Source: Azolla caroliniana (lineage: Eukaryota > Plantae > Polypodiophyta). Taken from it: a stretch of 64,000 nucleotides of DNA. The first letter of the stretch is position 1. Each line of letters starts with the position of its first letter. The stretch is from positions 1,922,001-1,986,000 of the forward strand of contig JBHGNT010000005.1 of NCBI GenBank assembly GCA_043228905.1, given 5' to 3'. The notes below the pieces were generated by a model, which searched no databases, was not told the DNA's origin, and was given only the letters and a program-made list of their open reading frames with translations. Made by a program: the position numbers and the translations under genes. Positions 6,513 to 62,254 of this stretch are shown here, piece after piece.

Positions 6513-7620
6513 CATGGAGTCAGTTAGCAAACAAGCGTATGTTCGCATCGTCTCTGAACTAGAGCATCTCACAAATAAGTTTGTGGCGTTAGAACAAGAG
6601 AATCAATGATTGCTTGGAGATTTGCAACAAGTAAGCATAGAAAAGGCACAACAATATGATGAGTTATCGATACGTGTATTGCAACTCGAAACAACATTGC
6701 GGTCTCTTCATCAACAAGTTTCAATGCAACAAACCTCTCCCAAAGAACCGAAGATTTGTTTGCCTGGGAAGTTCGATGGTAATCGATCACAGTTTGAAGG
6801 GTTTCTAAACCAAGTACGACTAGTAATTCATATGCACCCTAATAGGTATCTGACTGATGCATCTCAAGTTGGACTAGTTGGGACCCACTTAACAGGAACT
6901 GCATTAGCGCAGTTTGCACCACTGCTAGAAAAGAAGTCTTCTCTTCTCCAAGACTTCGAAGGTTTTATTAGAGAATTTCAAGCAAACTTTGGAGACATTG
7001 ATATTGTTAGAACAACGATTAACAAGATTCAAAGATTGCATCAAGGGGACTGTCCTACCTCTACCTATGCCACAGATTTTCGCCTCCTAGCTTGTGATAT
7101 TCCGTAGGATGAAGAAGCCTTAATGGATCAATTTCGCTATGGACTAAGAAATGATGTAAAGGATTTGCTATTAACTTTTCATGAAGATCCAAGATCACTT
7201 ACAGAAGCGATAAGTCGTGCACTGTGATGTGACAACCGCTTATTCGAGCGACGTTCGGAGCGTCAATTAGTGTCATGACCAAGAACGGATCAAACATATG
7301 CTTCGGTAGCAGCCTTGACGCCTACGAGCACTACCCAAACTTCACACATGATTCCATTAGGTGGTCCAAGTCCAATGGAGATCGATGTAACACGTTGTCG
7401 AGGGCCTTTATCTGAAGCTGAGAAGCAATGACGTTGAGCAAACCGTCTATGTTTGTATTGTGGTGGTCCAAGACACATCTCGATCACATGCCCACATAGG
7501 CCAAAACTTCAAGTAAATCAAGTAAGTATTAGTGAGAATCTTCATTCCAATTCTCTAGTTAGATCGTCTAGCCCTAGTAGTTCCACATGTAATGGTCAGT
7601 CCATAGTTTTGAAGTCTTGA
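6513..7620 (+). pseudogene. gag: gag (sushi/PEG10-like capsid plus CCHC zinc knuckle), interrupted by stops
   Basis: MESVSKQ... coiled coil, then PGKFDGNRSQFEGFLNQV and LHQGDCPTSTYATDFRLLA. Knuckle CLYCGGPRHISITC at about 7450. In-frame stops at 6607 (TGA) and 7105 (TAG), among others. Confidence 0.88.
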
Positions 7621-7675
7621 GTCAACTTGATGAAATATTAAACGAATAAGTCCAACCAAATTCAAAGCCATTTGG

Positions 7676-10600
7676 TTGGACAGTCATGAATATGTAAAGT
7701 CACCCCCAAGTAGTGGTTCCATTTTATCAAATCATGTTAGCATAGTTTTTTTAGCACAAGTTGAGCTTAGCACTTCTAGGTGTCATCGAGTTCTTGCCTC
7801 TACTCTCTTAGATTTAGGAGCCAACTCTTGTTTTATGGACAAAGAATTTGCTTTATTCGAGGAAATCCTATTGAAAAACCTCCCTTGCCCTGCATCTGTT
7901 GTTAGTCATTCATGGTCGCCCTATTTCATTCGGGAATATAGTTGAAGAATCTGAGCCAATCAGAGTAGTTTTTGGTAGCTTTGCTTGTATGATTTCCTTC
8001 AATATAATTAGTAGCCCTGAGCATCCGGTTATCCTTGGTTTGAACTTCATAATCTTGAAATTGACTGGAGAAATCGAACAATCAATGATTTCCAGCAGAA
8101 ACCTGAATCCAGCTGCCTTGTTACTAGCAACCAAGATTCAGAACCTCACCAAACCTCGCCCATCTCTCTACAAAAATTACGAGAAACCGGGCAAACAAAT
8201 GAAATTTTTGTCTTTGCAGTAATAGCAAACCCATCCTCTAGCTCACAAGGGGCAGGTACTCCCCTCCCTACCAAGTACTTGGATTTTGAAGACATCTTCA
8301 ACAAAGCTAAAGCTAGTTCTCTCCCAGACCATCGTCCTTATGATTGTCCTATCAATCTACAACCTGGGAAAGAGCCACCATGGGGCCCAATATATAATCT
8401 ATCACCTTTTGAACTCAAGGCCCTTCAAGAGTATATAGACGAGCACTTAGCAAATGGATTCATTCGACATTCTAAAAGCCCTGCTCGTGCACCCATCTTC
8501 TTTGTCAAGAAGAAAGATGGATCTCTACGACTGGTCGTGGACTATCGAGGTCTAAACAAAATCACAGTTCGAAATAGATATGCTCTACCCTTGATTTCGA
8601 GTTTACTATAGCGTCTTAGTGGAGCGAAAGTTTTCACGAAGCTAGATCTTCAAGGTGCATATAACCTTGTTCGGATACATCCAGGAGATGAATGGAAGAC
8701 AACATTCTGTACTCGATACAGACATTTTGAGTACACGGTTATGCCTTTTGGTCTCATGAATGCCCCCGCGGTTTTTCAACACATGGCGAATGATATTTTC
8801 CGCGATTTTTTGGATTCATTCACCATAGTATATTTTGATGACATCTTGATCTACTTGAAAACTCAAGAAGAGCATGACATACATGTCTGCCAAATCTTCC
8901 AACACTTACGAGAATATGGGCTCTATGCCAAACTTGAGAAATGTAGCTTTGATCAAAACCATGTGGAGTTTCTAGGGTATGTGGTTTCACAACAAGGTAT
9001 ATCTATGGATCCATCTAAGGTTCAGATAGTTCTAAATTGGCAACCACCTCATTCAGTGTGTGATGTTCAATGTTTCTTAGGATCTGCGAATTTTTACCGC
9101 AAATATATCAAGAATTATTCAAACATTGTGATGCCTCTTACAGAGCTTACACGAAAGAACAAGTCATTCACATGGAGTTCTAGTGCAACCAAAGCTTTTG
9201 AAAGCCTAAAGAGAGCATTCACTTTTGCTCCAATTCTACTTCATGCTGACCTAGAAAACCCGTTTATCATCGAGGCGGATGCGTCTAATTTTGCACTAGG
9301 AAGTATCTTGTCACAGACAGGAGATGATGGGAAGCTATATCCAATTGCTTTCCATTCACGCAAATTCGAAGCCGCAAAGATCAATTATGAGATTCACGAC
9401 AAATAGCTTCTAGCCATTATAGACTCGTTTGAACAATGGAGACATTTCTTAGAAGGTTCTCCCCACCAAATCATTGTTTACAATTATCATAAAAACCTCA
9501 CATACTTTCAAAGTGCCAGAGTCTTGAGTCGTCGACAAGCTCGTTGGGCACAGTTTCTAACACATTTTAACTTCGTCATCACATATCGCCCAGGAGTACA
9601 AGGAAAGGCAGATGCTCTCTTACGTTGGGCACAATTTCTAACACATTTTAAGTTCGTCATCACATATCGCCCAGGAGTACAACAAGGAAAGGCAGATGCT
9701 CTCTCACGACAATCTTATTTGGCTCCACAACCAGGAGAGCCCAGATTTGATCATAAAAAACAAATCGTCTTGGGGCCTAATCAGTTACAACTATTAACTA
9801 TTAATGCCTCTCAAGAATTTGAAGATTCAAGTCTTCTTGATTCAATCCAAACATATATAATTTCTGATGAATTTGCTCAAGATATATTGAACCATATAAT
9901 TTCAGATCGCGCTTCTTCTTCAAGCTCCAAGAATCCTCGTAAAGATTATAACCAATTTAAATGGGATAATGGTTTACTTTTTCGCAACACTCTTTTGTAT
10001 GTCCCAAATGGTTCATCTTGACTTCAAGTAATGCAATATTGTCATGACTACCCAATGGTCGGGCACTTTGGAGCTAGTTTCTCAAAACTATTGGTGGCTT
10101 CACCTTCAAGAGTTTGTTGAAGATTATGTTCGTAGTTGTGATGTGTGTTGTCGGTCAAAGATTCCATGACATCAACCATATGGGTTATTACAACCATTGC
10201 CAATTCCTATTGGTTCGTGGAAATCCATCTCAATGGATTTTATTATAGATCTTCCAATTTCGAAGAGTTTTGATGCATTTCTCACTATAGTAGATCGATT
10301 CACAAAGATGACACATTTTCTTCCATGCACAAAAACCATCAACATTAAAGAAACTGTAGACATTGTTATGAAAGAAGTATTTCGGCTTCACAGTCTTCCA
10401 AATGACATCATTAGTGATCGTGGCCCACAATTCATCTCAAATTTATGGAAACACTTGCTTGAGATGCTCAAAATCTCTTGTAAACTTTCGTCAAGCTATC
10501 ATCCACAAAGTGACGGTCAAACCGAGCAGACGAATCAAACATTAGAGCAATATCTTCGGTGTTTCATCAATTACCAACAGGGTGATTGGGTGGATTTTTT

Positions 10601-11343
10601 GCACTTTGCAGAGTTTGCATACAATAATTCAGTTCATTCCTCAACAGAGTATACTCCATTTTTTGCAAACATAGGATATCATCCTTGTTGGACAATGATG
10701 GCACATCCAGAAATCTCGAAAAATCCTGATGTTGAAGATTGTGTGTGTAAACTCCAAGACATGCATATTGCACATTCTCGACATTTGCAAACTGCTCAAG
10801 CCACACACAAAAAAGCCACAGATCGTCACCGTCTCAACTCTTCACCAAAGGAACTGAAGTTTCGAATTAGGGATCGTGTATGGTTACTACAACGTAATGT
10901 GAAGACTACTAGACCTTGTGACAAGTTGGATTATCAACAACTTGGTCCATTTATTATCTCCAATTAGATTAATGATGTTGCATTATGCCTTGATCTACCT
11001 CCACAGATGCATCTACATCCGGTGTTTCATGTCTCATTGTTGGAATCCTACATTGGTAGTTCCATTCCAAATCGGGTTGTTCTACCCCCACCTCCAATTC
11101 AACTTGTTGATGGCCTAGAATTTGAAATCAAAGCTATTCTGGACTCTAAGATAATACGTAAAAAACTTTATTATCTCGTGGATTGGTTACGATATACACC
11201 AAATGATCATACTTGGGAGCTAGTTGAGAACCTTGATAATGCCTCTGACTTGGTGGCTGAATTTCATCGCCAATATCCAAATAAGCCAAGTTCGAATTCA
11301 TGCATTACGACTCATGGAACTCGTTATCAAAGGAGGGGGATAG
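7676..11343 (+). pseudogene. pol: pol: protease, RT, RNase H, integrase, chromodomain (stops and frameshifts)
   Basis: [45 protein letters not shown] and VYFDDILIY. RH IEADASNFALG. IN SMDFI, SDRGPQF and HPQSDGQTEQTN. Chromodomain FEIKAILDS...YLVDW...TWE at 11120-11290. Confidence 0.93.
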
Positions 11344-11750
11344 TGTCATGTGTATACAAAACCCAATAAGCTTTATGGTGATTCGAACCCATGCCCTCCT
11401 CAAAGAAGGCATACAACCCCATCCATTAGGATACATCATATTATATATATTGAATAATAAATTCGGTTATATCAATAGGAAATACATATAATAATATTAT
11501 TGAAATGTTGTCACATTGCTTAGGCTGACACAGGATTGCCAAGGGGCATGCTTGCATGAATGCCAAGTGGCGATCATGCGTGTATTTGACTATTGATGAA
11601 CCATTCTGGTTCAACGCCAGTCTTCGGCATATTCTTGTAAACATTGCTCTCGTTGTTAATACATTATCAAATTCTTCTTATCTCTCTCATATCTTTCGCT
11701 TCTCGTTCTCTTCTTCATTTAAAAACTTGTTCCTAACTTTGGTCCTGACA
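11344..11750 (+). repeat. 3' LTR (407 bp)
   Basis: Same termini as the 5' LTR. Lacks the 50 bp corresponding to 6158-6207. Confidence 0.95.
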
Positions 11751-14005: not shown

Positions 14006-17000
14006 ATGGTGACTATGGAAGTTGATCGAGAGAATGTGCTTCAAGTTTCTTCACACAACTCAGAAATTGACGTGGATGAACTTCAGTACTCTCGCCTAAT
14101 CTACACAATCGGCAAAGATGCAATGAAATCTATCCGGAATAGCAGAGCATTAATTGTGGGTTGCAGAGGGGTAGGGGCAGAGATAGCTAAAAACCTTCTA
14201 TTAAGTGGGATAGAAAGATTAGGTCTTTCTGACCAAGGCGCAGTTTCTATGGCTGACCTTGGCTCGAATTTCTGCCTCCGGGAGCAAGACTTGGGTCGGA
14301 ATCGTGCAGTCGTGTTGTCTGAACGTCTACAAGATTTTGGTCGTCCATGTGGTTTCCACATGGACAATGATGCCACTATGAACCGCATTGTTGTTGTTGC
14401 AGAATCTACAATCGAAGATGCCATCGTCTCTTACCATGTGGTCATTGCTACCTCGGGTTCGATTCCTGAGCTTTCTTGGCTCAATTCTCTTTGTCGCACA
14501 TCAAATATCCCTTTTATCGCATCACAGACTCGTGGGTTATTTTCCTATGTATTTGCGGATCTCGGAGATTCCTTTGATTTCCAAGATAATCATGATGATT
14601 CGTCGAGTTTGATCCTCATTGCCAATGTCACACAAGATTCCCCAGCCACAGTCACAGTTGTCGAAGAACAAAGGCATGGTTTAGAGGATGGTGATGATGT
14701 TGTATTCACTGGTATCAAAGGTATGCAAGAGCTCAACCAGGATACTAATTCTGGCAGTAACAGTTATAGAGTAACTGTAACTGGAAGCCATACATTTAGC
14801 ATTCCAGTTGATACTCGAGGGTTTGGAAGGTATTTATCAGGTGGATATTTCCAAAAACTCATTCCTATGAAGAAATTCAGTTATATTCCACTTGAATTGG
14901 CACTGGGAAACCCAATATTCTCAGCTATGGATAACCTGGAGCTCTCACATGAGCCCCACATCCATGTGGCTCTACAAGCTATCGATGAGTTCATACGATC
15001 AAACAAGGACAACGATGTGATATCAAACACTGATATTGATAACATAGTGACAAGAGCCCAAGAGATATGGGAAGTATCTAATTTATCAACAAGCAGGTAC
15101 TATATGATTGACAACAAGGAGAGAATAGGTACTTCTACCCTGGAGTTAGAATGCTTAGAAAACAAGGAAAAGGAAGATAATACGATGCAGAATGAGAATG
15201 GTGAAGATAAAGCTCAAGAACATCATGAAGTAAAATTTTCAGTTTTGTTGGGTAATTTAGATGAGAAGCTTGTGAGGACTTTGGCTCACACAATGAATGT
15301 GGAGTTGTGCCCTTTGGTTGCTTTAACTGGAGGACTAGCCGCACAAGAAGTCATAAAGGTGTATATCATTTCTCATTTTCGTGCATAAATGAATTACAGA
15401 CAATGTATAAAAGGATACCCATCCTACAAGGGGCAATATGTCAATTCTACTCCATATAGTTCTAAAAATATCAGTAATGCCCCCAATATCAAAGTAAGAG
15501 TTTAAATATTGATTTTTCCTTTTTACTAGAAAGTAAGGTTGAATAGCTATATTTAACATGAATTCTGAAAGCAGATTGGTTGTTAGGATGTTTAATAAGC
15601 CAAATTATAGAATTGTGATAAAATGTTGTCTATGGTAATTCCAATTCTTTTTACAGGTCATAGGGAAGATATTTACACCATTGCATCAATGGATCTACTA
15701 TGATGTAGTTGACTGTGCCCCATCTCAATTTATAAACATTACAGATAATGCTCCACTGCAATCACGTTATGATATGCAGATAGCATTGTTTGGTCAAGAA
15801 TTTCAGCAAAAACTTGGCAGTTTGCAGGTACTAATGCTCCGTATGTGCTTTCAAGTTAAAATTTGAAGAGTGAAAGGTTTGAGCTTTGGACTTCTAATGC
15901 GCTCAATGAGGCATAATTAAAGCTCAAAAATCTACATTATATGAATCTATTGCTCAAACTTTGATTTTCATGATCGTTACCCAATTCATTGGGAAATTGG
16001 AATGATATAATTCCTTGCCTCTTTGTCCAGTGGCTGGTTGTTGGTGCTGGTGGGATTGGATGTGAAGTATTGAAGAACCTTGTCCTTATGGGAGTAGGTT
16101 GCGGTCCAAGTGGTAGTATCACAATCTCAGATATGGACCGTGTTTCAAAGCCTAATTATACAGATCAGTTATTATATCACATAGATGATCTAGGGAAACA
16201 CAAAGCAGCTACAGCGGGACGAGCTCTACGTAAGATAAATCCTGAAGCCCAAATCCGGGCTCTTCAAGAAAGATTTGATGTGGAGACAGAACACATATTC
16301 GATTTATCGTTTTTTCAGTCATTATCAGGTTCGTAGTCGTTGAATTCTTTATTTAAAACCTTACAATCTTGGTGCCAGTTTTATTTAAATGAATGACATG
16401 TTGGTTATTGTATATGTTGATTTTGGCTAGTATTTTTTTGAAGTGCAGTATCTTATAAAGCTGAATTTTTAATATTATTATCCCCCCACAAGTTAATCTC
16501 TTGTTTGGTCCATGGGTGGTTATTGATGAAATATAGAATTTGAGATCGTCATGTGCAATACACTAGTCACATGCCATACGATTTTGTCACTGTTTGTTAT
16601 CTCGTATCCCGAGTTTCTGTGAACACACTCTGTACCTCACTCTAGTTATATGCACACTATTTACATAAAAAGGAAAGGAAATTTAAAATAAGCAAATGAT
16701 ACAGTCAAAATAAGCATGTGATACAATCAAATGAGATTTTTCAACTTCGGCATGAACAAGAATCTTCATCAAATACTTCAAGTCGTCATGCATATATTTT
16801 ATAGGCACACTTGATGATGTAATCTATGTGGAAATACACATTTCCATTTAGCTATAATTTATTTAGAGTTTATTCACATTAGGGAAATCATGGAGCTGAG
16901 CTACAGGCTATGGAGTAGTTTGTTGCAGAATCAAAGATTCAAGACCAAAAGGGGATTTGGATGGCCTTCAAGTATAGCTTACCACTATTGGGAGGAGATT

Positions 17001-20000
17001 ATGAAGTTGAAATGGAATGGAAAAAGAGACTCTAGGTGTTATGGCTAGGGATTTGGACCCAACTCCGTGGATTGGATGATTTCAAACACAATTCACATTC
17101 TAGGCTTATGATTCTAAAGGGGATTTTTTTCACTGTCACATTCCATGTGTGCTGGTACTAAAGAGAGGTTTGTAGAAGATGGAGGATATCTATAACCAAT
17201 GAGGATGGAGGATATCTATAACCAATCAGGCTTAGGTAAAAAGCAGGCCTATCTGTTTTTTTATTCTTGGAGATATGTAGTTTTGGTTGTAGCAGAGAGT
17301 AGTTGTCTGATTTCATTTGACTCCATCAAGACTCTTCTTTTTCACCTTGGAGATGATCCTTCACGATGGCAACGATGATCAGCAATATTTTCATCTCGCT
17401 TTCCAGCATCACCTTATGGTTCATCTGCAAGAGTGGATGCTCGCAGATACTTGGTGAACATAACTTAGTATTTTATATATTCCTGTTTCTAATAAAATGA
17501 AACTTCTTAAATATCTCATGCTCCAATCGTACACCCACCTAAAACCTTTTTTTATATTTGAACGGTTCAAGAGGAGGGGCATTTCTAGTCCTGACAATGA
17601 AGGAAACACATTCCAAACTATCGGTGAACAGATATTAGATTCATCACCATAAACATTTGTATTTCGAATGTTTCAAGAGGGGCAATCATTTCTAGTTCTG
17701 ACAATTAAGGAAGCACATTCCAATCTATCAGTGGACAGATACTAGATTCATCACTATTTCCGGTATCATCTTAGGGTGTGTTTGGGAAAGCCAATATTCT
17801 TAGATTCATAGATCCAATGTTCTAAGATCCTTGGTAGGCAGCTATGATCTACATTAGATACTTCGAAGAATGGTTCTACTGGCGATTCGAAGGCTGCAAA
17901 GGAAATCTAATTAGTCTGTCATATCTTGGGGACAATCTCACCTATTTTTTGACTTTGCTCTTGGTGACATTACCTGGGGTATTTACTTCCACAGTGGATT
18001 TTCATGCCTTGCTATTCTTAGGCTTCCTGATTGAGAAACTTTAGCTGATTCTAATGCGTATATTACTTTTGCATTATCCTCCAAAGTAGGGCACATGGCA
18101 ATTATGATGGACTTTTTTCTGCAGGTAATATAAGCCATGCTCTCTGAATAAAGCAGTTAAGAATTTGGTAATCAGGAATATGGACACTGTTATGTGTGTC
18201 TCGCCTCTTGTATGAGCATACTGATCCATTTTATGTTTAGTATTCATTCTTTTATGTGACTTATTCCAGTTGATATTTTAATTTTATGTGTATGTGCTGC
18301 AGGTGTGTTCTCAGCAGTTGATACTGCATCCTCCCGGCTATATATAGACATGCGTTGTGTTACTTCCCGTAGGCCTATGATTGATGGCGGAAAGCATGAC
18401 ACACGGGGAAGTGTTCAGGTAATGCATGCTGACTACACAGTTGTGCAAATTTTGGAGTATTGATCAATAAACATTGTTTCATTTTGTTTCATGTATTACT
18501 TTTGTATAGGTGTTTCTTCCATTCCAGTCTGAGATGTATGCATCATCACGTGATCCTCCCGAGTTCAAGGAAACTCCTATATGCACTTTGAGGAACTTTC
18601 CCTATTCTACAGAACATACAATCCGGTGGGCTGTAGAAACATTTGAGTCTCTCTTCAAGCAAAGACCTGAGGATGTGAATGCTTACTTGTCAAATCGAGC
18701 CTTTCAAGATTCAATAAGGAAGGAAAATCCCTCTGCACGTCTTCCCATACTTGAAACTCTATGTGATTCTCTTTCAAGATATAAGCCATTAAGGTATTAA
18801 ACAGTTGTTTATGTCATTCTCATGTGCCATGTTATCTGGTCCTTGTCCTCTCTGTATGCTTGTAGGTAGGTGATCCTAGTAGATTTTCTTCAATTAAGGA
18901 CTCGACTAATTATTACTTCATTATGATATTATGACCGTGCATGTAGATGTCCTATTAGATATCTTTCAATTATGTCATCTTAGTAGAAATCAACATATGT
19001 TTGTATGTCCTTTGATTATTATTAACATACTGCTTTTTGATTTGCTATTTTAGCTTTGCAGCATGTATTCAGTGGGCAAGATTGCAATTTGAAGAGCTCT
19101 TTTCAAATAGTGTTAAACAGGTACTGCAGTTGAGAATATGTAATCTTGGCTGGATAAAGTGACATTGTTTTGTAGATATCAATATACAAGGTTGCATTCA
19201 CTTGTATTCATGTCTCTATTCTTTTGAAGATAACATATCCAATCTGCTATTTGTTTATTAAAGAATTTCTCTCAATGCATTTATATGCAGAATATAGAAT
19301 TCTATCTGTATGAGTTTCTTCAATCCAAGGAATGGGATACTTATACTTATGCCCGTAAGCATAGAGGCTTAGGATTGTTTCAAGTTGTGTAGTTCATTAA
19401 TGGCATAAAACATAGTACTCTTTGAGATTGGGCTGAAATGTGACAGTGGACACTGAAAAGTACAAGAGCTTTAAAAGAAATATCTGTATGGTTGACAGCA
19501 TGAATGAACAGCATACAATTTTTTCCTTGCTCTATGTAAAAGAATTTAGCATCTTTCCTCGAAATGAAGTGCACTAACTTACAGTAAAAAAACATTTCTT
19601 AACATTGAACAAATTGGTCATGCAAGTCACGGTTTAAAAATAGAGAAATAAATTTATCATAGTCCTTCTCAACCTGATCTAGTAACAGCTAATGGACATT
19701 TTATGTTGATTTGCATTACAACTTGTTAAACCACTCTGCACATCCATGTATCATGATATATACATGGTTCACGAAATAAAAGTTCTTACTTGCATATAAT
19801 ACTCGATTGGGTTACTCAAGGGCTCAAGATGCAGTAACATGAACAATATAGATAAGGAGGTTGGGCATTGATAAATATCCAACTCCAAATGTTCGTTGCT
19901 ATGCATCTAACACCAAAGTATCGTATCTCATAATTTGGCCACATGGAAATTTGAATCAATGCTACAAACAATTAATATAATCCATCCTTGAAACAAAGCC

Positions 20001-23000
20001 ATTACATAGGGAACACTTTAAAGTATGCAGATAACCTGCAATTATCCGCATTCATCCAAATGTTTCCTCAAGTTTATGCCTCTTTTCTTATTTTCTAATG
20101 TGATGTTTACAATTATCAGGGTTTGTGTTTTGCATAATTTTGACTTTGAAAGCTAGAAAATGCACATTTTTCTATATTTCTTTGCATTCTCTGTCTAACT
20201 CCACTTAAAATGGCATCTACCACCCATTTATTTCTAATGATTTGCCTTGTATGCCTGGAATTGGAGATCTGGAATTCTCTGGACTTTTGGTGAGATTAGG
20301 TGCTATATGCATCATATTTCTTGTTATGGCATTATCGTAGAGTGTATACCTTCTAGTTTGTTGTGTTTTTTTTATGACACATAAAAGACTCGTTTAGTAG
20401 GCTAATTTGGCTTGTGTTAAGATCCTAGTATACCTTTCTATCTACATTCTCATTTCTACACCATGGGACTTAGGGATAGCGTATATCTCAAATATGACAG
20501 TCCCTTGGGTAGTATTGGATCTGTATTTCACAGGTTTAACCTAACAATGTCTTCCGTTCTACAGCTTTCTTTCAATTTTCCAGAGGGCATGATGACGACT
20601 ACTGGTGCACCATTCTGGAGTGGAACTAAACGGCCACCAGTCCCTATAGTGTTTGATGCAATGGTAGCTTTACACTATGATTTCATTGTTGCAGCCTCTA
20701 ATCTTCAGGCAACTGTATATGGATTGAAGGGTTGCCAGGATCGTTCTCTGTTTATGGATGTCCTGCAGACCATAGAAGTACCTGTATTTCAGCCGAAGGT
20801 ATAGTCAGAAACATGAGCTTCGAAACTTCATTTTAAAGTTCAGAGTCGGAAATAGGAAATTGATTTATGATGGGATTTATAGGAAGGTGTCAAAATAGCA
20901 GTTTCTGACAATGATTTAAGGAGTGGAGGGCAGAAGAGTATTTTCAGCTCAGAAGATAATGATGCTGCAGAAAAATGTGAAGCTTTAATGCAGGAGCTTC
21001 CTACTCCAGCATCACTTGCGGTAAGCCTGCAATAATCTTCATGCTCTATGGCTCAACAATAATTTCTAATTTCCCCCCTCTAAAATGTGCTCTTTGTTAC
21101 TGGTTTCTGCTTTGTGTACATCATCTTGTTGTATTTGTTTTGCTGATTTCTTTAAGGGTGCATGCACTAATATTTGACTGTTGATAAACAGTTTTAAGGT
21201 TTATATCTGTGCTGTGTATCTGTATGAGAGCCAATTGTTTCTTAGAGATGGCCCTCCTATATAAAACTGACTAATAAAAATGCACTTCAGAATTCATTAA
21301 TTAATCTTGATTTACAACATTTTTAGAGACACTATGTGAATAATGTGTAATGTGGTGAGGAACGATCTAGTGTGATGATCTCTAACACTGTCTTGAGTCC
21401 TCATCAACAGAAAAACCTGTCTTGCACATAAAGACACAAGATCTAATGTGGAAACCAATAAACTTCTCTAAGAAATACCAAAGAATAAGAAAAGGCTGGC
21501 ATGGTAGGTCATAAGGTTAGAAAAAGCAAGATGACCAAGATGTAATTGGATCCTTTGATCCTCCCTTCTGTCCAGCCTCTGCTTATGTAATTGTTATGAG
21601 CGTATGCTTAACCTTAAGAAGCATGAGCTCGAGCTTTGATCTAGTGATGGTTTGTATGTTGCATTAGAAGCACAAACATAAAATTTCATAGCTATATGGC
21701 TAAGGAAATTGCAAGGTGAGCTCATTTGCATCAGTGACTATAGTAAAAGAAGCCCATCATCAAACATCACTATAGGTCTGGTGGTGCTATATATGAGGCC
21801 TAGTGTCCTAAGTGAATACTCACAGTAGTGAATGCTGTTAACTTACATTGGCCTCATTAAAGGATTGTCACTGATTTCCTGGTTTGTCTCTCCTCTTTTT
21901 CTTTTAATCCTCTTTGGAGCTCTGATGGCAGATGAGATGTGTAAGGACCTTTATGGTCTCAGTAGTTTTATGTACTAGGCCTAATGGTTTTATTTAGATA
22001 TTCATATAAGTGAAGGTTATTTAACTTATTTTGGTGTCATGAAAGGATTACCACCGATTTTCTTTCTTGTTACATCCTCCTTTTTCTTTGCTTGGAGTTC
22101 TGATGTCACATATGATTGTTTATCTAGGGATATAGGCTGACACCTATAGAGTTTGAGAAGGATGATGAACGGAACTTTCATTTGGAGTTTGTGGTTGCTG
22201 CTGCGAATCTACGGGCGCAGAACTATGGAATACCGCCATCGGATATTTTACAGGTTCAGCTATTAGCTACTTATATCTAAGAAGAATGAAATTCCATGTC
22301 TTAATGAAGGATAATTTACTGTTGATATTTCCTGGTTAATTTTGTTTATAGAAGATTTGAAGAGACAATAGGACAATTTTTTAAATATACTGGAACTATT
22401 TCAGGTTCGGCTTGTTGGCGGAAGAGCCATTCCTTCAGTTGTTACTACAACGTCTGTTGTTGCTGGGCTTATGTGCCTTGAGCTCTACAAAATTGTTTTA
22501 GAGAAGCCAATTGATTGTTTTAAGCATTCCTATTTAAATCTGGCTGTGCCCATGATATCAAATGCAGAACCAATAAAGGCTGTAGTAAACACGGTATGCT
22601 TTCAGGTGCTGTTTTGCGTTTATTTCTGTTGATATTCTCTCGTAATAGAAAAGATAAAACAGGTGGAAAGGATTGATCGTCCTCCTCTTCTCTGGACACT
22701 CTGGGACAAGTTCGAAATGAATTGTGTGGGCATGTCATTAGAAAGATTCCTGAGAGAGTTCAAGCAGCAACATGGGCTCGAGGTAAGAATGGTATTTAAC
22801 ACACAGTTGTATGTCAATAACATTATGTAGAAAGCCCCCATAGAAGTCAAATCGTCTAGCTTTAATTTAACAATGATTTTAGTATGCATTTTAAGTTAAT
22901 TCATATAAAAACATCTATTAACATGCAGAGACGCTTGCTATTTCTGTTTGCTACCATCTTTTGAAAAACTTGAAATGGCAGTCTAAGCTATTTATGGAAC

Positions 23001-25784
23001 AAAAACACTTTGGTATACAAATACAGAAATGATAAAAATGAAAATTGATCACCAACAAGAAGATAAACAAATAATACAAGATAAAGTAGCCTTTTTGGAG
23101 GATAGAAGACTCCTAGTTGCACTATAATCTTCACCATAAAAGTAAAGAATGAGGACCTCAAGTATAGGTCTCAACCTTAAATGATGCCCGACAGCTTGGT
23201 TATGTTGAAACAGAATCATGTCAAGAACATAGGAAATTTGGCAATACTCTGTGATTTCTGGCTTTTCTGTTTCTCTGCATATGGCATGATGAAAGTCCCA
23301 AATTCTTTATGCTATATACCCTCTCTGGACTGAAGAACAAAGATTAATTTACATCAATCAGTTGTTTGAACCCCAACTCAAGTTGGCGCCAACTTACCCC
23401 TGAATATACCCACGGTCTGAATATCTCAGGGATGCTTCTTAAATCTATATCTTGTTTTTATTTCAAATCGAAATGAAATATAAATATTCTATCTGCCACT
23501 GCAGTGTAAGTAGATTGATTCAGTATTTCTACAAAATAATGACGAATTGGCTGGTATCACCCTCGAAGTGGGTATTTATTGTGTTTTGTGCACTGTGAAA
23601 ACAACACCACACCCACACACACAGTGTGGACATATTTTTAAAGGAAAAGGAATAAAGTCGATGATACAAAGGATAACAGTACATGACACAATCTTTGAGT
23701 AAATACTAATGACTCATTTCGAATGGATCATTGTGAAGAACTCTACTGTAATTACAAATTTTTTTTCGGCCATTTAGATATCTTACTTGTTTTCTACAAG
23801 TTGGGATCTCATTTGCGTTTTCAGAAAACCTGATTCCTGGAGTTCTCTTCAAACAGGTTGTTTCATTCCGAATGTTTGTAACTTCCTGTGGCATCACAGG
23901 CCCTTTTCTTGGGTTCTGCTAAGTGAATGGTATTTATGCGATAATCAGGAGGTACTGTTAGAAATAATCTGATGAGTTTTGCCAGAACTTGTCGTTACAT
24001 TTGCATCAACCTTCCAATGGGAGATGTAGAGGCTTTTGAGTTGGATGTTCGAGAAGTTACCTGCCTCTCTATTTCTGAGTGAGGAGTTGACAGAATATCC
24101 CTCTAAATTAAATTGATGAGGATTTGACTCTGCGAGGGATGTAGGAAGATTGACCCCAGCCGCTTCCTACGTGCATCGGTTGTAGTTTTCTGTAATTCTG
24201 TCAAGTTAATGAAGTGGTAAGTACTCAACGAAATCGATGAAATGGGGGTGGAGTAGGTGGCATACTGTGGGCTTAATGATGTAAGTCGATGTTAAACTAA
24301 TGATATAAGTTGATGTTAAACTCAATAATCAATGAGATCAAGTTAATGAAGTGGTAAGTACTCAACGAAATCGATGAAATGGGGGTGGAGTAGGTGGCAT
24401 ACTGTGGGCTTAATGATGTAAGTCGATGTTAAACTAATGATATAAGTTGATGTTAAACTCAATAATCAATGAGATCAACAAAATGGGGATGAGGTAGGCA
24501 GCATATTGAGGGTTCAACGATATGATTTGATTTATTAAACTAGTGAAGATTGATTAGTTCTTAACCTCTAGCATTCCCTCCCAAAATGGAAATGAATCAT
24601 AAACTATAGAGTCACTGCAAAGGTAAGAGTATGAGGGCTGAGTAAAAAAGACTAGCTTGTTTCGGGAAAGATGAGGTGCAGGGTAATGATTCTTTCAAGA
24701 AGATATCTGTCAGAAGAAATCAATTAGTAATTGGCTTGGATTGAAGCATTGTTTGGATTCTGATCCACGGGCAGGGTGTGGATACACAGACCCTCCATTG
24801 CTTCGAATAGATCAGAAATAAATCGAGCAACCATCTGGCAATATCCCGATAGATTGTTTTGATGATGAATCCATAAGCTTGGTAACTCGTCTCCCACTAG
24901 TTTGTTATGGGAGAAAAATAAAGCAAAAATTATACTTTTAGATATTAAGCAACTGTGAGGTCACTTCCATAACAGGGGTTTGTGGTTTCCTGTTACTTCC
25001 TTTTCACAAGCTCAAAATATGCTGTGAAGCCACTCTATCTGAATGTGTAAAATCAAATGGGAAATAGGCTTGCTTTTGGAAATATGCTTTTCTAACTGTC
25101 CAATTATGATATTAAAGTGATGAATATGATTTTAGTGTGACCACCAATTAAAGAAGTTACTGGATTGTAAAATGTGCACGTCTCTTTCTGCCTTTTGTAT
25201 ACACCCGAAGTAGTTTCTTGTTGTGTGCTACACAACAGGTGAACCTAAAGTTTCTGATTCATAATTGCAAGTCTTGTGATTATTTTCGCAAAAAGGAATT
25301 CAGATTCATTTATTGCCCAACAGACTTAAATAATGTTCAGTGTTTTATGTGTAAATGCATATGTATATCTACTTGTGCATGTCTGTACATATCAATAATG
25401 CATGTATGACAATGTGTGCTGTTCAATGACTCCATATGCCTAGAAGATTATGCTCCTTACGAGTTATAGATGAATTGTTAAAAGTCTTCCTGTAATTACA
25501 TTTTTCTTTGTATTTCTGTAATACTTCAAAAAACCTACTCTAATATCAATGCTTATACTTCACAGATTACGATGCTATCGTATGGTAAGAGTCTACTATA
25601 TGCTGAGTTTGTTCCTAAAAAGAAGCTACAGGAACGAATGCCTTTGTCTTTGCTGGACCTCATTACATCCGTTGCGAAAGTGACAATCCCGCCAAGAGAA
25701 AACCGGGTAGTGTTTTCAGTGTCATGCTCGGATGCCACTGATAACGATGTTGATGTTCCTGACATTGTAGTGGAAATCAGATAG
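14006..25784 (+). CDS. UBA1/UBA6-family ubiquitin(-like)-activating enzyme E1, divergent, about 1104 aa, 12 exons
   Basis: Inferred GT-AG exons: 14006-15358, 15657-15827, 16031-16328, 18303-18418, 18510-18793, 19054-19120, 20565-20798, 20883-21020, 22128-22253, 22405-22593, 22663-22782, 25566-25784. Phases join into one open frame. IAD (YSR, GCRGVGAEIAKN), FCCH (RHGLEDGD), AAD GAGGIGCE, catalytic Cys PICTLRNFP (TGC 18582-18584), FEKDD, NLRAQNYGI, and C-terminal UFD (WTLWDKF...ITMLSYGKSLLY). Confidence 0.93.
24201..24478. repeat. 137-bp tandem duplication in E1 intron 11
   Basis: Copies start at 24201 and 24338 and appear identical by eye, with TCAA at the junctions. Confidence 0.92.
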
Positions 25785-31950: not shown

Positions 31951-33041
31951 TTGGAACTCCATTCTAACTATGCACTATCCCTAAATGTTATTTTAACTAT
32001 GAAAGCGATTTATACTACGAACATGTTGCACAATATTCCTTTTCGATACTGCTTGTTCAAGTAGAATATATCTATTCTTGTTATAACTTGAGATCCTATC
32101 TCAATTTTAAAGCATATTGTTTCAAGTCACATGTATAATCCTTTAACTAGTGATGCATGGTGTGCACATTCAACGAACATATTAAAGCTTCTATTTTGCG
32201 GTAAATACCAAAGTTCCAAAAATGTACATCTTTGCCCGTCAAATATTCGACAATTTGATTAAGTTACTAATGGCCCAGTAATATTTCAAGATACATTTAC
32301 TGCATCGAGGAAATTAGATAATAACGGGTGCATTATTATTGACACTTCATGGAGACCATAAGCCGAATTGAAGCGTGGACATAAAATGAACCAATGTTCT
32401 TATGGGTCACAATATGGAAAGAAAAGGATACCATGGTATCAATATTTTGATAAAGCATTTAATCGTCCTTGTCATGCGATGTCTGTCCTTTCACAACCAA
32501 AGGGCCCACAAGGTAGGTACACATACGTGGATCGAGTGCCCACCACATGGTAGGAAGCGTTTGTCCAACATGGGAAAGGTCCAATTAATTTTGATGTGTG
32601 AGGGGGGGAACAGAGACAGAACGAAAACAAAAGACAAGAAATATGTAAGAATAGGTGCACGATGATGATGATGATGATGGGCGGGGTCCATTGGACAAGT
32701 CTGATGGGGAAATGGGGGGGTTGGGGACACGAGGGACGAGGTGTGTGAAAGGGCCCACTGGACACAACATTGGCCTCAATTCTCACTCTTAACAATGTAA
32801 ATGACACCCCACAAATGCAAAACAAACACTTCACTTCAATTCATTATTACCTTTTGAATTGTACAAGGTGGGTTCCTCTCTTAGCTCTCTCTCTCTCTCT
32901 CTCGCTCTCTTGATTTATTGTCATTTTTAGGGTTTAGGGTTTCGGGTTTTCTTCTTCTTCTCTAAAAGACCATTAATGAAGGCATTGTCGTCGAATTCTT
33001 TCTTTCGGTTGTCGGTGTGAAACGGATCCATTTTGTTGATA

Positions 33042-36000
33042 CTAAGGTGCCTTTTTCCCATTGGAGGAGATGATGGGCACTGTTTTGATGCCTTTCTTCT
33101 GTAGCTCCACCATCACACTTTCCATTGATGGGGACTTCAACCCTAGGGGTAATGGCGTGAATGGATTCTTCAACACCTCTCTGATGGCAGCATCCACTCT
33201 CTCCTTGGGCTGTTTCAATGCAGCACATAAAAAGATGATGAGCACTTATCTCTACTTTAAAATAAACAAACAAACAATCAATATAACTTGAACTCCTTTT
33301 CATAAAGACTGTGTAGATCATTACCGGGTGCAGACCCGGCGATTTGTCGACAGGGATCATTCTATTCGCTACTCCTGGCATCGGTACAAGCGGTACTCTC
33401 TGTGTTCACAAATAATGCTTGTCCAATTTTAGAAATCCCCATTGTGGTTCAAAATGAAAAAAAAATCACCATAGAAATTCCCAATCATAATAATGCTTGG
33501 ATAACAACCACCACCATGGGAGAATGTTATTCGAAGAAGAAAGAAATTCTTGTGACATACCAACATGGGTCGAGGATAGAGCGGTGCTCCAGGTGCAGGA
33601 TGACCCCATGCATCGACACCAACCTAGACACATATAATCAAAAAGGGCAACCGAAATTCAAAACTATAGCCTTTGACATTATTATTGTATAGCTTGGCAT
33701 GTATCACGAGCTAAGACACAACAAGTGTGTACCGGTCGAGGAGGATGCCAATAGGTACCGTCGGGAGCTTGCCAAGGCTTTGGCCAAAAATGTTCGGGAG
33801 ATGGATGACCCCACACATGTAGACCCATTGGCATTATCGGTGTCGGTCGAGGAACCACATGCGTTTGTGTCTGTGGTGCTGGCAATTTCCGAGGAGCCGA
33901 CTCCACCCGTTGTATATGCTTTTTATGTGACCGGTATTTCTAGAGTAAAGCAAAACACAAATAAGACGTGTTGTCTTTAGATCAAAAGTCCAACTCATAA
34001 CACAACTTTTAAAATTTTAATGTCTCTGCCAATTTGAGCAGGTGAAGCACAACAAATAACTCTTTTTTCGTTGCATGTAATGATGATCCATAGCAATTTA
34101 TCTCCAAGGACAACATATGACTCTCATTTTTCTTGCAAGTCAAGGCAATGCAATGCAATGCTGATCCATGCAAGCATTCCCAAGAGTCTATGGAGATAGG
34201 TCTCTCCATGCAAGCATTTCCAAGAGTTTATGGAGATAGGTCTCTCCATGCAAGCATTTCCAAGAGTTTATGGCTCACACGAGTGACAAATAATTCCTTT
34301 CGCAAACATTACAACATCAATGCATTCATCTCTAGGTAAAGCATGTTCTAAGACTTTTTTGTAAATCATTCACGATTTGCCTTCTCGAATATAGTGCTAG
34401 AGATAGGCTTGAGCTACAAACTGTAAATACCTTGAGATGTTATGTAGATGTGTGAGATGTAACCCACTAACCTGTAGATGGCTTGCAATGTTATGTCGCG
34501 TCAAGTGTCGAACCCCCATCATTTCCAATATCTTTGAAGGAATTGCCTTATCCACTCCGAGTTGCTCTGCTGCTCGAACAAACCGACGATGCAATTCGGG
34601 TGTCCAATCGACCTGCTATTACATTAGCAACCATTCTTAGTACCATTTACAAATAGTTCCCATTTACTGATTACCTTCTTGAATTTGGAATATACTTATT
34701 TATACCTTCATCTTCTTCTTCGATCCACCGCTTTTATTCCTGTTCCCAGAAGTAAGTTCTGAATCATTCGATGTGGATACAAATTGCTTCATATAGGACT
34801 CATCCCCACGGACATTGCTATCTTTGTGGGTAGACTTGAAATCACATGCAAAGCTAGTACTACTACTACTACTACTACTCATACCCGCCTCGGCCTTGGC
34901 AACCTCGGCTAAAAGAAGAGCCTCTTCATCATTTTGCTCAGCTTCATCATCAATGTTTGCCGAGCTTAGCTCCATGTCTTTGCAGCCCGATATGTTGTCC
35001 ATAATACTAGAATGCATATCTATACACAAGAGTTCATCGACAAGTTCGTTAGCTAGAGTATCTTGGAAATCGAGCCCTTGATATTGCATATCATCGACCA
35101 CATCCTCACATAATGCTGCCTCTAGGCTCTCAAGATCATTGAAATCATATCGATCACAATGACTCTCTTCAAAGAGACAGGCTCCATCCATCTCATCGGC
35201 ATCATTTCTGACATGTGAAAAGCTACAATTATCATCAGTGCTCAGGTCATCTTCGACCTCAGATTTGGTACAAGTACAGTCGTCAGAATGGTGTGATCCA
35301 TCGAGAGAAATGTCCGCCCTCATAGCTTGTATGAGCTGAGGGGTTGAAGGTGCCGAATCGAAATCAGGACTGGGTTCAATGGATCTCTTTTGTGTGTCAC
35401 TCTCTTCCTCTATTATTTCCTCTTTCAAGAAGAAGCCAGTTTCACATGGTTTTTGGCATGATTGCATTTCATTAGTGATTTCTGGTTGTTGTGCTACGAT
35501 GACTTTACCACTCTCATTCGGACTGTTGTGCTCACTAAGAGAACAGAATTGTTGTGGCACAATTAACTCTCCTGTGATTAGTGCCTGATTCAAAAAGATT
35601 AAGAAGTGCTAAAATTTTAAGTTATTAAATCCTAGATCAGAAAAACTAAAAAGTGATAGTGATTAAGCCATAAACCAAAACACCAGTACAAAGGGGTAGA
35701 CCAAATAAGTATTATTTAGAGGGATATAATATAAAATTACCTTCCGAAACACATGTTGCCATATATTCTTCAACTTATTTGCAGTGAGAGGCTTCTCAAT
35801 GAACTCTGAAGCTCCAGCCTATAAGCATGGCGTGGATCTATTAGCTTAGGAAACAATCACAACTGCGATCCTTCTTAAGGATCATTAAGTAAACTTCCGT
35901 GTTGATGTACATACCTCAATGCCCTTCACCATCATGTCCACATTCTCTGTGCTAGAAAACACTGCAAGCATATGTAAAACAGACCTCTATTTAGTGAGCA

Positions 36001-37250
36001 ATTTTCTTTCCTCAGTTCCAATGCAGTTACATTTTTAACTTAAATGTCGATCGCAAGTTACAACAATGTTGAAAATTAAATTGTGAGCAAATTGATGTAC
36101 TAACAAATTGTGGGCAAATGTTTGGCGACAGCTGCAGCCACAATGGAAAAAGAATCAGATGCATTGATGGGGTTTATCTGTAAGAGAACAAAGAAAAAAA
36201 GGACCTTGTTATAGATGAATGATTATTGAAGGAAGATTAAAGGATTCATATGACTGAAAACAAGAAGAGATACATGGATGGAGACAACACCCAGTTTTCA
36301 TTAGCTAAAATTAAGGTGTTAACATGAGAAAGGCAAGAAGAGATTAAGAGGAGAAGGTCACGCTTAAAATAGAAATGATTTAAAGGAAAATATTGCTAAA
36401 ACTAAAAAGACAATTAAGGGGAGAAAGAAGAACAGGTTGAGGTAGGTTAAGTAAAAGATTCATTTCATACAAATATAGTAGGAATAGTAAGATGGTTGAA
36501 GGAAGGGCTTGGGGAGGGGAAGGGGAAGGGGGTGATCCGCTTTTACCTCTACAATGGCAAGATGGAAAGCAGTGGCGGCAGGGTGATGGTGCAAAGCTGA
36601 GAGAGCTTCTTCCCTTTTAGAGACAGCTGTGACTGTTTACCCCAAAAAACTCAAACCAAGAATTAGGGCTTTGAAATGATAAGTAAATTTTCACAAGATA
36701 ATCCTTACTTAGCAACCACAAAAAAGCAAGAAAAGGAATCCCCTTAAATCCAGAAACAAACAGTACAATCTGAACTGGGTTTAGGGTTTAATCCGAGGCA
36801 ATTTGATTAAACCATCAAATGGAGAGCATTGGAATCAAGAGAAACCCCTGAAAGAATCATCGAAAATGAGCAATCTGAACTAAGGTCAGGGGTTAAATAT
36901 TAGGCTTAAACCTAGGGTTAATGTTAGGATCAGTGAGACGCATTGTGATTGGAGCATCAAAAAATGGAGGTTCAGAGAAAGAAGTAAACATCAAAAGATG
37001 AGATAGGGTGAGGGTAGATTTAGAATTCGAAATAAGGATTTAAATTAGCAAAATTTAGAGTAAAAGAAAAAGGTTTAGGGTTTTTACCAGAGTAATTGCA
37101 GGATTCCAACTGGAGCTTTGCATCGGCGAGGGAGATGTGATCTTCATCGAGCAGGAGAGCATGGAGGCCGACAGGGAAATTCTTCCACGACGGGAATTTC
37201 TGCTCAAATGAAGAGGGAATGTCACAAGAGTCCATGCAGCTCATCGCCAT
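33042..37250 (-). CDS. APRR2: APRR2-like pseudo-response regulator (pseudo-receiver, GARP/Myb and GLK C-terminal GCT box)
   Basis: Inferred exons: 37250-37088, 36632-36547, 36177-36105, 35961-35915, 35818-35741, 35584-34706, 34612-34472, 33939-33733, 33623-33561, 33399-33325, 33209-33042. Motifs: [21 protein letters not shown] (phospho-Asp replaced by Glu), EFIEKPL...[18 protein letters not shown]...[14 protein letters not shown], and GCT box [27 protein letters not shown]. Confidence 0.92.
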
Positions 37251-61372: not shown

Positions 61373-62254
61373 ATGGATGACTCTGGTAGGATGGATCTAA
61401 GGCACTGGCAAAATTTCGACCCGACACATTTGAAAGACTTGTTCCGGGACCACCCTGCATTGAAGTTGATGGATGTGCTCGCAGAAAGAGATGCAGCCAT
61501 TGCCGAGCGAGAGACTGCAATGGCCGAGAAAAAGACTGCATATGCAGAGCGTGATGCGGCTCTCTTACAGAGGGATGTCGCATATGCTGACAGGAACACT
61601 GCATGGATGGAGCGTGACACCGCCCTCGCAGCCCTTGCTATGGTAAGGGCCAACAAAGACAATGCTGACACGGCATCCAAGTTAATACAAATGGTTAACG
61701 TTCCACATATCGAACCTAACCATCATCTCTCGTCACTTCAAGATTGTAACAGTGGGTTTGGAAACATGAATGGTATGAAAAAACAAGGTAAGAAGGAGCA
61801 AGAAGCACTTCCTAGGAAGCGGAAAAGGTCGGTTTCTGCCTTGACACCCAAGACTCTACCAAAAGATTTATACCATCATCAACTTCAACCACCCGATATG
61901 CCTTATAAAGTGAAGCAAGAGGCGACTACTAGCTTTTTAGGGATGGACTATCATTATGACATGTTTTCGACGCCGATACCATATTGTTCTTGCACTGGAG
62001 TTCAGCATCAATGTTATAGGTGGGGTAAAGGTGGGTGGCAATCAGCTTGTTGTACAAATGTGGTTTCTACATATCCTCTACCCATGAGTGAAACAAAACG
62101 TGGTGCGAGAGTCCCCGGTCGTAAAATGAGTGGGGGGGCTTTCAAGAAGATCTTGGAAAGGCTGAGTGCCGATGGTGTCGATGTTACTTTGCCAATTGAC
62201 TTGAAGGATCATTGGGCAAAGCATGGTACAAATAGGTATGTCACGATCAAGTGA
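61373..62254 (+). CDS. BPC: BBR/BPC GAGA-binding transcription factor, class II (alanine-zipper type)
   Basis: AERDAAIAERETAMAEKKTAYAERDAA coiled coil. NLS RKRKR. Pentacysteine domain CSCTG..QCYRWGKGGWQSACC. Ends in the WAKHGTNRYVTIK motif. Acceptor TTTGCAG at 61265 implies a 5'UTR intron. Confidence 0.96.
   Translation: MDDSGRMDLRHWQNFDPTHLKDLFRDHPALKLMDVLAERDAAIAERETAMAEKKTAYAERDAALLQRDVAYADRNTAWMERDTALAALAMVRANKDNADTASKLIQMVNVPHIEPNHHLSSLQDCNSGFGNMNGMKKQGKKEQEALPRKRKRSVSALTPKTLPKDLYHHQLQPPDMPYKVKQEATTSFLGMDYHYDMFSTPIPYCSCTGVQHQCYRWGKGGWQSACCTNVVSTYPLPMSETKRGARVPGRKMSGGAFKKILERLSADGVDVTLPIDLKDHWAKHGTNRYVTIK

Follow-up and report, generated by a model that had tools for sequence, protein, structure and literature searches.

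Ubiquitin-activating (E1) enzymes define conjugation pathways, and the closest described systems to the gene considered here are the monomeric E1s UBA1, UBA6 and UBA7. For UBA1 an ancient paralogy has been described in which red algae and glaucophytes hold orthologues of one kind and Viridiplantae and alveolates orthologues of the other (SELMA study, bioRxiv 10.1101/2025.03.31.646294). This study concerns an E1 gene in a 64,000-nucleotide stretch of the fern Azolla caroliniana (assembly GCA_043228905.1, contig JBHGNT010000005.1, positions 1,922,001 to 1,986,000; hereafter the window) and the family of E1s to which its product belongs. The reading we favor, with a probability of roughly 0.45, is that the gene encodes an ATP-dependent E1 for a modifier with an Arg72-type tail, probably not ordinary ubiquitin, which works with a conjugating enzyme (E2) of its own.

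Comparison with the described enzymes places the family nearest to the UBA1s of animals, fungi and red algae (human UBA1, PDB 6dc6; yeast Uba1), its neighbors in phylogenetic trees, with which it shares the six-domain architecture, the fold (template modeling score 0.94 by target), about 40% identity, the residues R57, K528, D576 and C632, and the Arg72 pocket. Unlike these UBA1s, the family replaces R515, E509, T600, L601, N606, N577, F320 and S937 and has a one-residue insertion in the crossover loop, a UFD motif of its own and a long stem. The canonical plant UBA1s (CTVHSF type: Spirodela P0133 and Wollemia P0156), which we take to correspond to Arabidopsis UBA1/UBA2, have the same domain set but are 35% identical to the family, form a separate clade, keep all canonical ATP residues and are present in angiosperms. 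UBA7/UBE1L, the E1 for ISG15 and described as a vertebrate duplicate, offers an analogy of function: the pocket for the LRLRGG tail is kept, the platform for the Ile44 patch is rebuilt, and Tyr stands at the F926 position in both. Human UBA7 nevertheless retains Arg (NLSRQF in 9jtc), and a cognate ubiquitin-like modifier (Ubl) is known for UBA7 only. UBA6, too, exists alongside UBA1 as an additional monomeric E1 and selects its own E2s; it differs from the family in falling in a separate clade (support 100), in keeping the Arg and in lining its tail pocket with H599, E601 and H614, where the family has S, Q and S or T.

Gene integrity, distribution and descent of the family

A script-built model from the window letters gives a gene of 12 exons (14006-25784, + strand), an open frame of 1,104 amino acids and GT-AG boundaries at all 11 introns; human UBA1 numbering, used throughout, was taken from alignment to solved E1s. 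Pfam identified ThiF, FCCH, 4HB, SCCH and UFD on the exons, and the exons, their relatives and a structure model searched with Foldseek agree on the one-chain order IAD-FCCH-helix bundle-AAD-SCCH-UFD of a monomeric canonical E1 (UBA1/UBA6/UBA7 type). A first-pass annotation, made by a model from the letters alone, had described an unbroken 12-exon frame, and every motif that it named was found where it had been placed, its range of 16031..18793 corresponding to exons 3-5 only. Contigs from public sequencing runs contain intron-skipping joints for all 11 introns in X2 and X15, for 9 of 11 in X1 and for 3 of 11 in X7, and four further runs join two or three of the introns lying between exons 2 and 5. 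Only X7 is recorded as RNA, the type of the other runs being guessed or unlabelled, yet the introns are skipped at GT-AG. The listed coding differences to close relatives comprise 30 synonymous and 22 nonsynonymous ones (pN/pS, the per-site ratio of nonsynonymous to synonymous differences, 0.21); in residues 452-741 the listed differences number 17 and 4 (pN/pS 0.07). The gene is intact and spliced, and its catalytic core is under purifying selection.

A search with exon 1 returned 39 matches, the best 17 of which form a tight group comprising Adiantum, Ceratopteris, Ginkgo, Selaginella, Diphasiastrum, Riccia, Marchantia, Physcomitrium, Ceratodon, Cryptomeria and other records. A profile search also gave Calypogeia, Welwitschia and a 73-member cluster, after which scores fall from 1760 to 1125 bits, and two further searches, one of 50% representatives and one with the C-terminal half of the Chlorokybus protein as query, added Chara, Coleochaete, Spirogloea (two copies), Mesotaenium, Chlorokybus, Mesostigma, a Cymbomonas cluster and a Diacronema cluster. 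Counts given below for land plants refer to 20 orthologue clusters from mosses, liverworts, lycophytes, ferns, Ginkgo, Cryptomeria and Welwitschia. Judged by sequence, the family is an ancient second clade of green-lineage monomeric E1s that extends from streptophyte algae and Cymbomonas to gymnosperms; the branch restricted to non-seed plants that the annotation had envisaged is too narrow, since Ginkgo, Cryptomeria, Welwitschia and green algae have the family too. No angiosperm member appeared among named records in word searches that scored only about 8,000 candidates each, so absence from angiosperms is likely rather than proven; further full-length land-plant records fall with ferns, mosses or gymnosperms in the tree. 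We considered a link of the family to flagellated sperm and rejected it because of the members in Cryptomeria, Welwitschia and Zygnematophyceae, which lack flagella. Among 80 metagenome loci, L001 and a fragment on L073 alone scored clearly as family, and the ESM Atlas yielded generic E1 clusters only. Searches of open-access literature found no publication describing the family, and passages of PMC4327156, PMC11099125, PMC11354881 and PMC10693564 do not address it.

Two members of the family call for separate mention. The first concerns the seven-member P0170/P0296 cluster and P0168/P0392: an E1 of the haptophyte Diacronema lutheri with a heavily eroded ATP pocket lies inside the otherwise green family as sister to Cymbomonas (SH-aLRT, an approximate likelihood-ratio branch support, 93-96, on a long branch), a placement that could stem from mislabelling, from ancestry deeper than the green lineage or from transfer out of a green alga. 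P0139 (Physcomitrium PNR54711.1), 496 amino acids long, shares a 90% cluster with the full-length PNR54713.1 and is possibly a truncated neighboring duplicate.

In a FastTree analysis of 251 sequences (those of 700-1350 amino acids from the searches, together with two cluster members and the window protein), the family formed a 29-member clade with support of 1.0. IQ-TREE, applied to 51 rows of our choosing with no named UBA7 row among them, gave the family a support of 100 under both LG+G4 and a mixture model and placed it, on a stem branch of 0.38-0.53, within a group of animal, fungal and red-algal UBA1s (SH-aLRT 91 and 92). The window protein and its Adiantum orthologue, 73% identical, are sisters with full support; plant UBA1 (Spirodela, Wollemia) lies apart, grouped with Thecamonas and others, and UBA6 forms a clade of its own. 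The approximately unbiased (AU) test rejected a single clade of the family and plant UBA1 (p=0.000127, log-likelihood difference 147), and a position of the family as sister to a wider plant-type group was not rejected (p=0.107). Because of the latter, descent from the animal/fungal/red-algal UBA1 paralogue, which we consider probable from the trees, is favored but not shown. In Fig. S5 of the supplement to PMC12412216, the leaf labels, which give no topology, list all green plants as one block with one Selaginella and one Physcomitrella sequence, and a second green group is not present among them; since both genera sit in that block, Selaginella and Physcomitrium also have a canonical UBA1. 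With this family, the published view that green plants retained a single one of the two ancient UBA1 paralogues would need revision.

The ATP site

Structures of E1 show the phosphates contacted by Arg22, Asn471, Arg474 and Lys487 and Mg by Asp537, and in Schizosaccharomyces pombe N471A blocks thioester formation (PMC6681703). In yeast Uba1, R21A or R481A alone lowers ATPase activity only marginally, the effects of the double mutant, of D544A and of K494E being severe (PMC9378703). Exon 3 of the window gene (16031..16328, + strand like all its exons) contains the GAGGIG loop at 16043, the DMD motif at 16130 (D504 and D506), RVSKPNYTDQLLY at 16139-16177 and GKHKA at 16193, with Asn550 at the N512 position and Lys566 (16202-16204) at that of K528. 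Exon 4 (18303..18418) follows with SAVDT at 18311, in which the Mg-binding Asp614 (18320-18322) matches D576 and Thr615 matches N577, then Arg619 (R581), and DGGKHDTRGSVQ at 18383-18418, which includes DGGKH and Gln646 (Q608).

Alignment to human UBA1 confirmed the Arg-to-Asp change and the neighboring changes that had first drawn attention to this gene: R515 is Asp553 (16163-16165), E509 is Ser547, T600 is Lys638, L601 is His639 and N606 is Ser644. They are not private to the genome. R515 is absent from all 20 land-plant clusters, and E509S, S598G, T600K and N606S are each present in all 20; the exact Asp, whose conservation in an orthologous clade the annotation had proposed to check, is present in 13 clusters, the others having N (5), E (1) or S (1). 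Arg occupies this position in 81 of 83 comparison rows, and one of the exceptions is a fragment of the family itself; the Chlorokybus and Cymbomonas members retain it. Positions adjacent to the adenine have changed as well (N577 to T or S, V552 to F, L575 to V, A478 to G). The concentration of changes in the adenylation domain also held up: sites conserved in canonical E1s are replaced in the clade at 25 of 94 AAD positions versus 10 of 137 elsewhere (Fisher p=1.2e-4), the 122 comparison E1s being our own selection of diverse full-length matches. The family has gained 65 near-invariant sites, and across the sequences compared its new residues are fixed rather than drifting. Two of the details picked out at first are less telling. 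The changes in DGGKHDTRGSVQ are real, but the Asp of DGGKHD is narrow, with Gly in all 20 orthologue clusters (exon 4 of the close relatives X3, X16 and X8 is letter-identical to that of the window); RAIPSVVTTT lies in exon 10 at 22423 as reported, but its K-to-R change is not distinctive, being seen in yeast Uba1 too.

Every land-plant cluster keeps R57, G475, D504, D506, N512, Q516, K528, D576, C632 and K851, and losses of the residues that are indispensable in yeast (D576, K528, or both Arg) do not occur in land plants. Because no cluster has lost R57, N512, K528 or D576 and yeast tolerates R481A while R21 remains, the land-plant enzyme is unlikely to be adenylation-dead, as the first-pass annotation had thought it might be.

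Modifier surfaces and the likely role of the enzyme

The residues described as contacting Arg72 and Arg74 of ubiquitin are Q608, Y618, S621, D623, R581 and E626 (PMC10448642 citing Lv et al., PMC12687455, PMC9378703), with Arg72 described as what chiefly determines specificity. Exon 5 (18510..18793) encodes the crossover loop with its one-residue insertion, the pocket residues Tyr656, Ser659, Asp661 and Glu664, and the catalytic Cys671 (18582-18584). The tail pocket had been thought rewired, which the comparison does not support: all 20 land-plant clusters retain Q608, Y618, D623, R581 and E626, and S621 is S or T. Such a pocket argues for a modifier with an Arg72 tail and against RUB or SUMO, which are disfavored because the residue at their Arg72 position differs.

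The Ile44 patch of ubiquitin is described as contacting F320, F926, F933 and S937; in the same account ubiquitin and ISG15 are not told apart at the LRLRGG interface, and the T600 equivalent holds the diglycine via its backbone (PMC10409785). F320 has become P, N, S or T in all 20 land-plant clusters and is lost in 7 of 7 algae, so that none of 27 family rows keeps F at a position that is F, L, Y, W or M in 115 of 122 other E1s. S937A and N924H are present in 20 of 20 land-plant clusters and F926Y in 19; F933 is kept in 5 and is mostly L. In the window the platform consists of Asn310 (14933-14935), in the helix bundle encoded by exon 1, and of Tyr972, Met979 and Ala983, which lie with His970 (N924) in exon 10 (22405..22593), where the chain re-enters the AAD. 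The loss of F320 is already seen in Chlorokybus, which retains R515. In UBA6, F316A reduces ubiquitin activation to 33%, and we infer that F316 is the same position as F320.

In the transfer half of the protein, land-plant members share an identity of 0.71 over the SCCH and 0.73 over the UFD; the first AAD segment, at 0.73, is conserved to the same degree as any domain. SCCH/UFD identity to opisthokont UBA1 is 0.47/0.38 and to plant UBA1 0.38/0.30; and between land plants and algae it is 0.59 in SCCH and UFD versus 0.50-0.52 in the AAD. The UFD begins in exon 11 (22663..22782) and continues in exon 12 (25566..25784), which holds the stop codon and the family motif ITMLSYGKSLLYAEF; a UFD motif of the family is present in Mesostigma and the Diacronema cluster as well as in the protein of the window. 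We infer that this family-specific UFD recruits a dedicated E2. An AlphaFold model of the orthologue P0001, 74% identical to the window protein and built from a 70-sequence input, has a mean predicted local distance difference test (pLDDT) score of 86 and a predicted template modeling score of 0.84, and its top Foldseek match is human UBA1-ubiquitin.

The favored model would run as follows. ATP-Mg would be bound through D504, D506, N512, K528, D576 and the IAD Arg, with the loss of R515 retuning rather than abolishing adenylation and the fixed Lys at T600 perhaps supplying charge. The tail of the modifier would thread beneath the crossover loop into the kept Arg72/Arg74 pocket, and its beta-sheet face would meet the rebuilt platform (F320 to N or P, F926 to Y, F933 mostly to L, S937 to A), much as in UBA7 with ISG15. 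Cys671 would then form the thioester and the UFD bring in the E2. Bulk ubiquitin would be handled by plant UBA1, freeing the second E1 paralogue to specialize. A different Ubl had been among the suggestions of the first-pass annotation, and it is the most likely reading now, strengthened by the Ile44-patch changes, which that annotation had not seen.

Several observations weigh against this model. No modifier or E2 of matching distribution has been identified, the Ubl and E2 genes of A. caroliniana not having been searched, and the 80 metagenome loci yielded no partner of either kind. Replacing R by D reverses the charge, a more drastic change than the R-to-A substitution in yeast, and it occurs alongside E509S, N577T/S and A478G. 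Chara and Mesostigma carry His at the N512 position and the Diacronema cluster Asp, Chara shows Gly at D576 (possibly through an alignment shift), and in Mesostigma the residues at D506, K528 and D576 are Ala, Arg and Glu. F926Y and F933L are conservative and are found in some ordinary E1s, and therefore ubiquitin may still bind, more weakly. The pN/pS values take in the listed differences only, which are a subset of all.

The best of the other explanations, though in our judgment an unlikely one, is a second, slower ubiquitin E1 with a restricted set of E2s, as UBA6 serves USE1 and BIRC6. It requires no new modifier, and it would account for the full Arg72/Arg74 pocket with its primary role in specificity, for UBA1s being the nearest matches in both sequence and structure, and for the distinct conserved UFD, which fits E2 selectivity. 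Ubiquitin is nearly invariant, yet its Ile44-patch contacts are replaced and the replacements fixed in the family, and the kept pocket cannot by itself discriminate ubiquitin from ISG15. Doubtful, and somewhat more so, is an adenylation-impaired pseudo-E1 in which Cys671 is loaded by trans-thiolation from plant UBA1 or an E2, to serve as a relay, a buffer or a discharger of E2s. Algal lineages lose ATP-pocket residues in different ways and keep the catalytic Cys (10 of 10 algal or haptophyte rows, and all 20 land-plant clusters), the transfer half is the better conserved between algae and land plants, and the ATP site and the modifier platform are both changed. In land plants, however, R57, N512, K528, D576 and K851 do not vary and no domain is better conserved than the first AAD segment, the loss of a single Arg is tolerated in yeast, and even the algal and haptophyte rows keep R581 (10 of 10) and Q608 (all 9 that cover the site), residues of the tail pocket. 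Use of a nucleotide other than ATP, which the first-pass annotation had also raised, seems very improbable; the adenine-adjacent changes would suit it, but in yeast the exclusion of GTP is ascribed to main-chain atoms of V520 (PMC9378703), which a change of side chain does not remove. A decaying, genome-private duplicate of plant UBA1 is refuted by the orthologues across land plants and algae, the spliced contigs, the constraint and the AU test, and no point in its support was found.

Should the family indeed activate a modifier of its own, its meaning would be broader, and we propose the following tentatively, as conceivable but somewhat short of even odds: green plants would have an undescribed ubiquitin-like conjugation pathway that predates land plants, with its own E1, modifier and E2, derived from a UBA1 paralogue thought absent there, kept through gymnosperms and lost in the ancestor of flowering plants. 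That loss, if true, would be why work based on Arabidopsis missed it. A separate conserved E1 clade gives direct access to what may be a branch still missing from the known ubiquitin system of plants, and the question is tractable in Marchantia, Physcomitrium and Ceratopteris. Even if the cargo is ubiquitin, the enzyme would be a natural E1 without the near-universal AAD arginine.

Remaining exons and other features of the window

Exon 1 (14006..15358) encodes the start Met, the IAD with YSRL at 14087, whose Arg30 (14093-14095) matches human R57, the FCCH, and a disordered acidic insert. This insert (about 15050-15250), predicted to be disordered in the P0001 model (pLDDT under 50), accounts for 7 nonsynonymous differences among the 22 listed, and no listed synonymous difference falls within it. 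Exon 2 (15657..15827) covers the end of the IAD and the start of the AAD. The SCCH occupies exons 6 (19054..19120), 7 (20565..20798) and 8 (20883..21020) and ends in exon 9 (22128..22253), which carries Lys898 (K851).

Upstream of the gene, 6610-11369 (+ strand) is a degraded long terminal repeat retrotransposon that encodes reverse transcriptase, RNase H and integrase but is interrupted by stops; from its domain order it is presumably of the Ty3/gypsy type. Downstream, Pfam places a Myb-type domain at 34469-34615 in a multi-exon gene on the minus strand (about 33000-37250); the N terminus of its product looks receiver-like by eye, and we take it to resemble APRR2/GLK; an intact GAGA-binding protein (PF06217) is encoded at 61373-62254 (+ strand). 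Within intron 11 of the E1 gene (23828-24631), short pieces match very abundant contigs, with depths of 99 in X1 and 1737 in X7, and near 24200-24480 a stretch of about 140 bp appears, by eye, to be duplicated in tandem; the region may be an insertion of organellar or repeat DNA.

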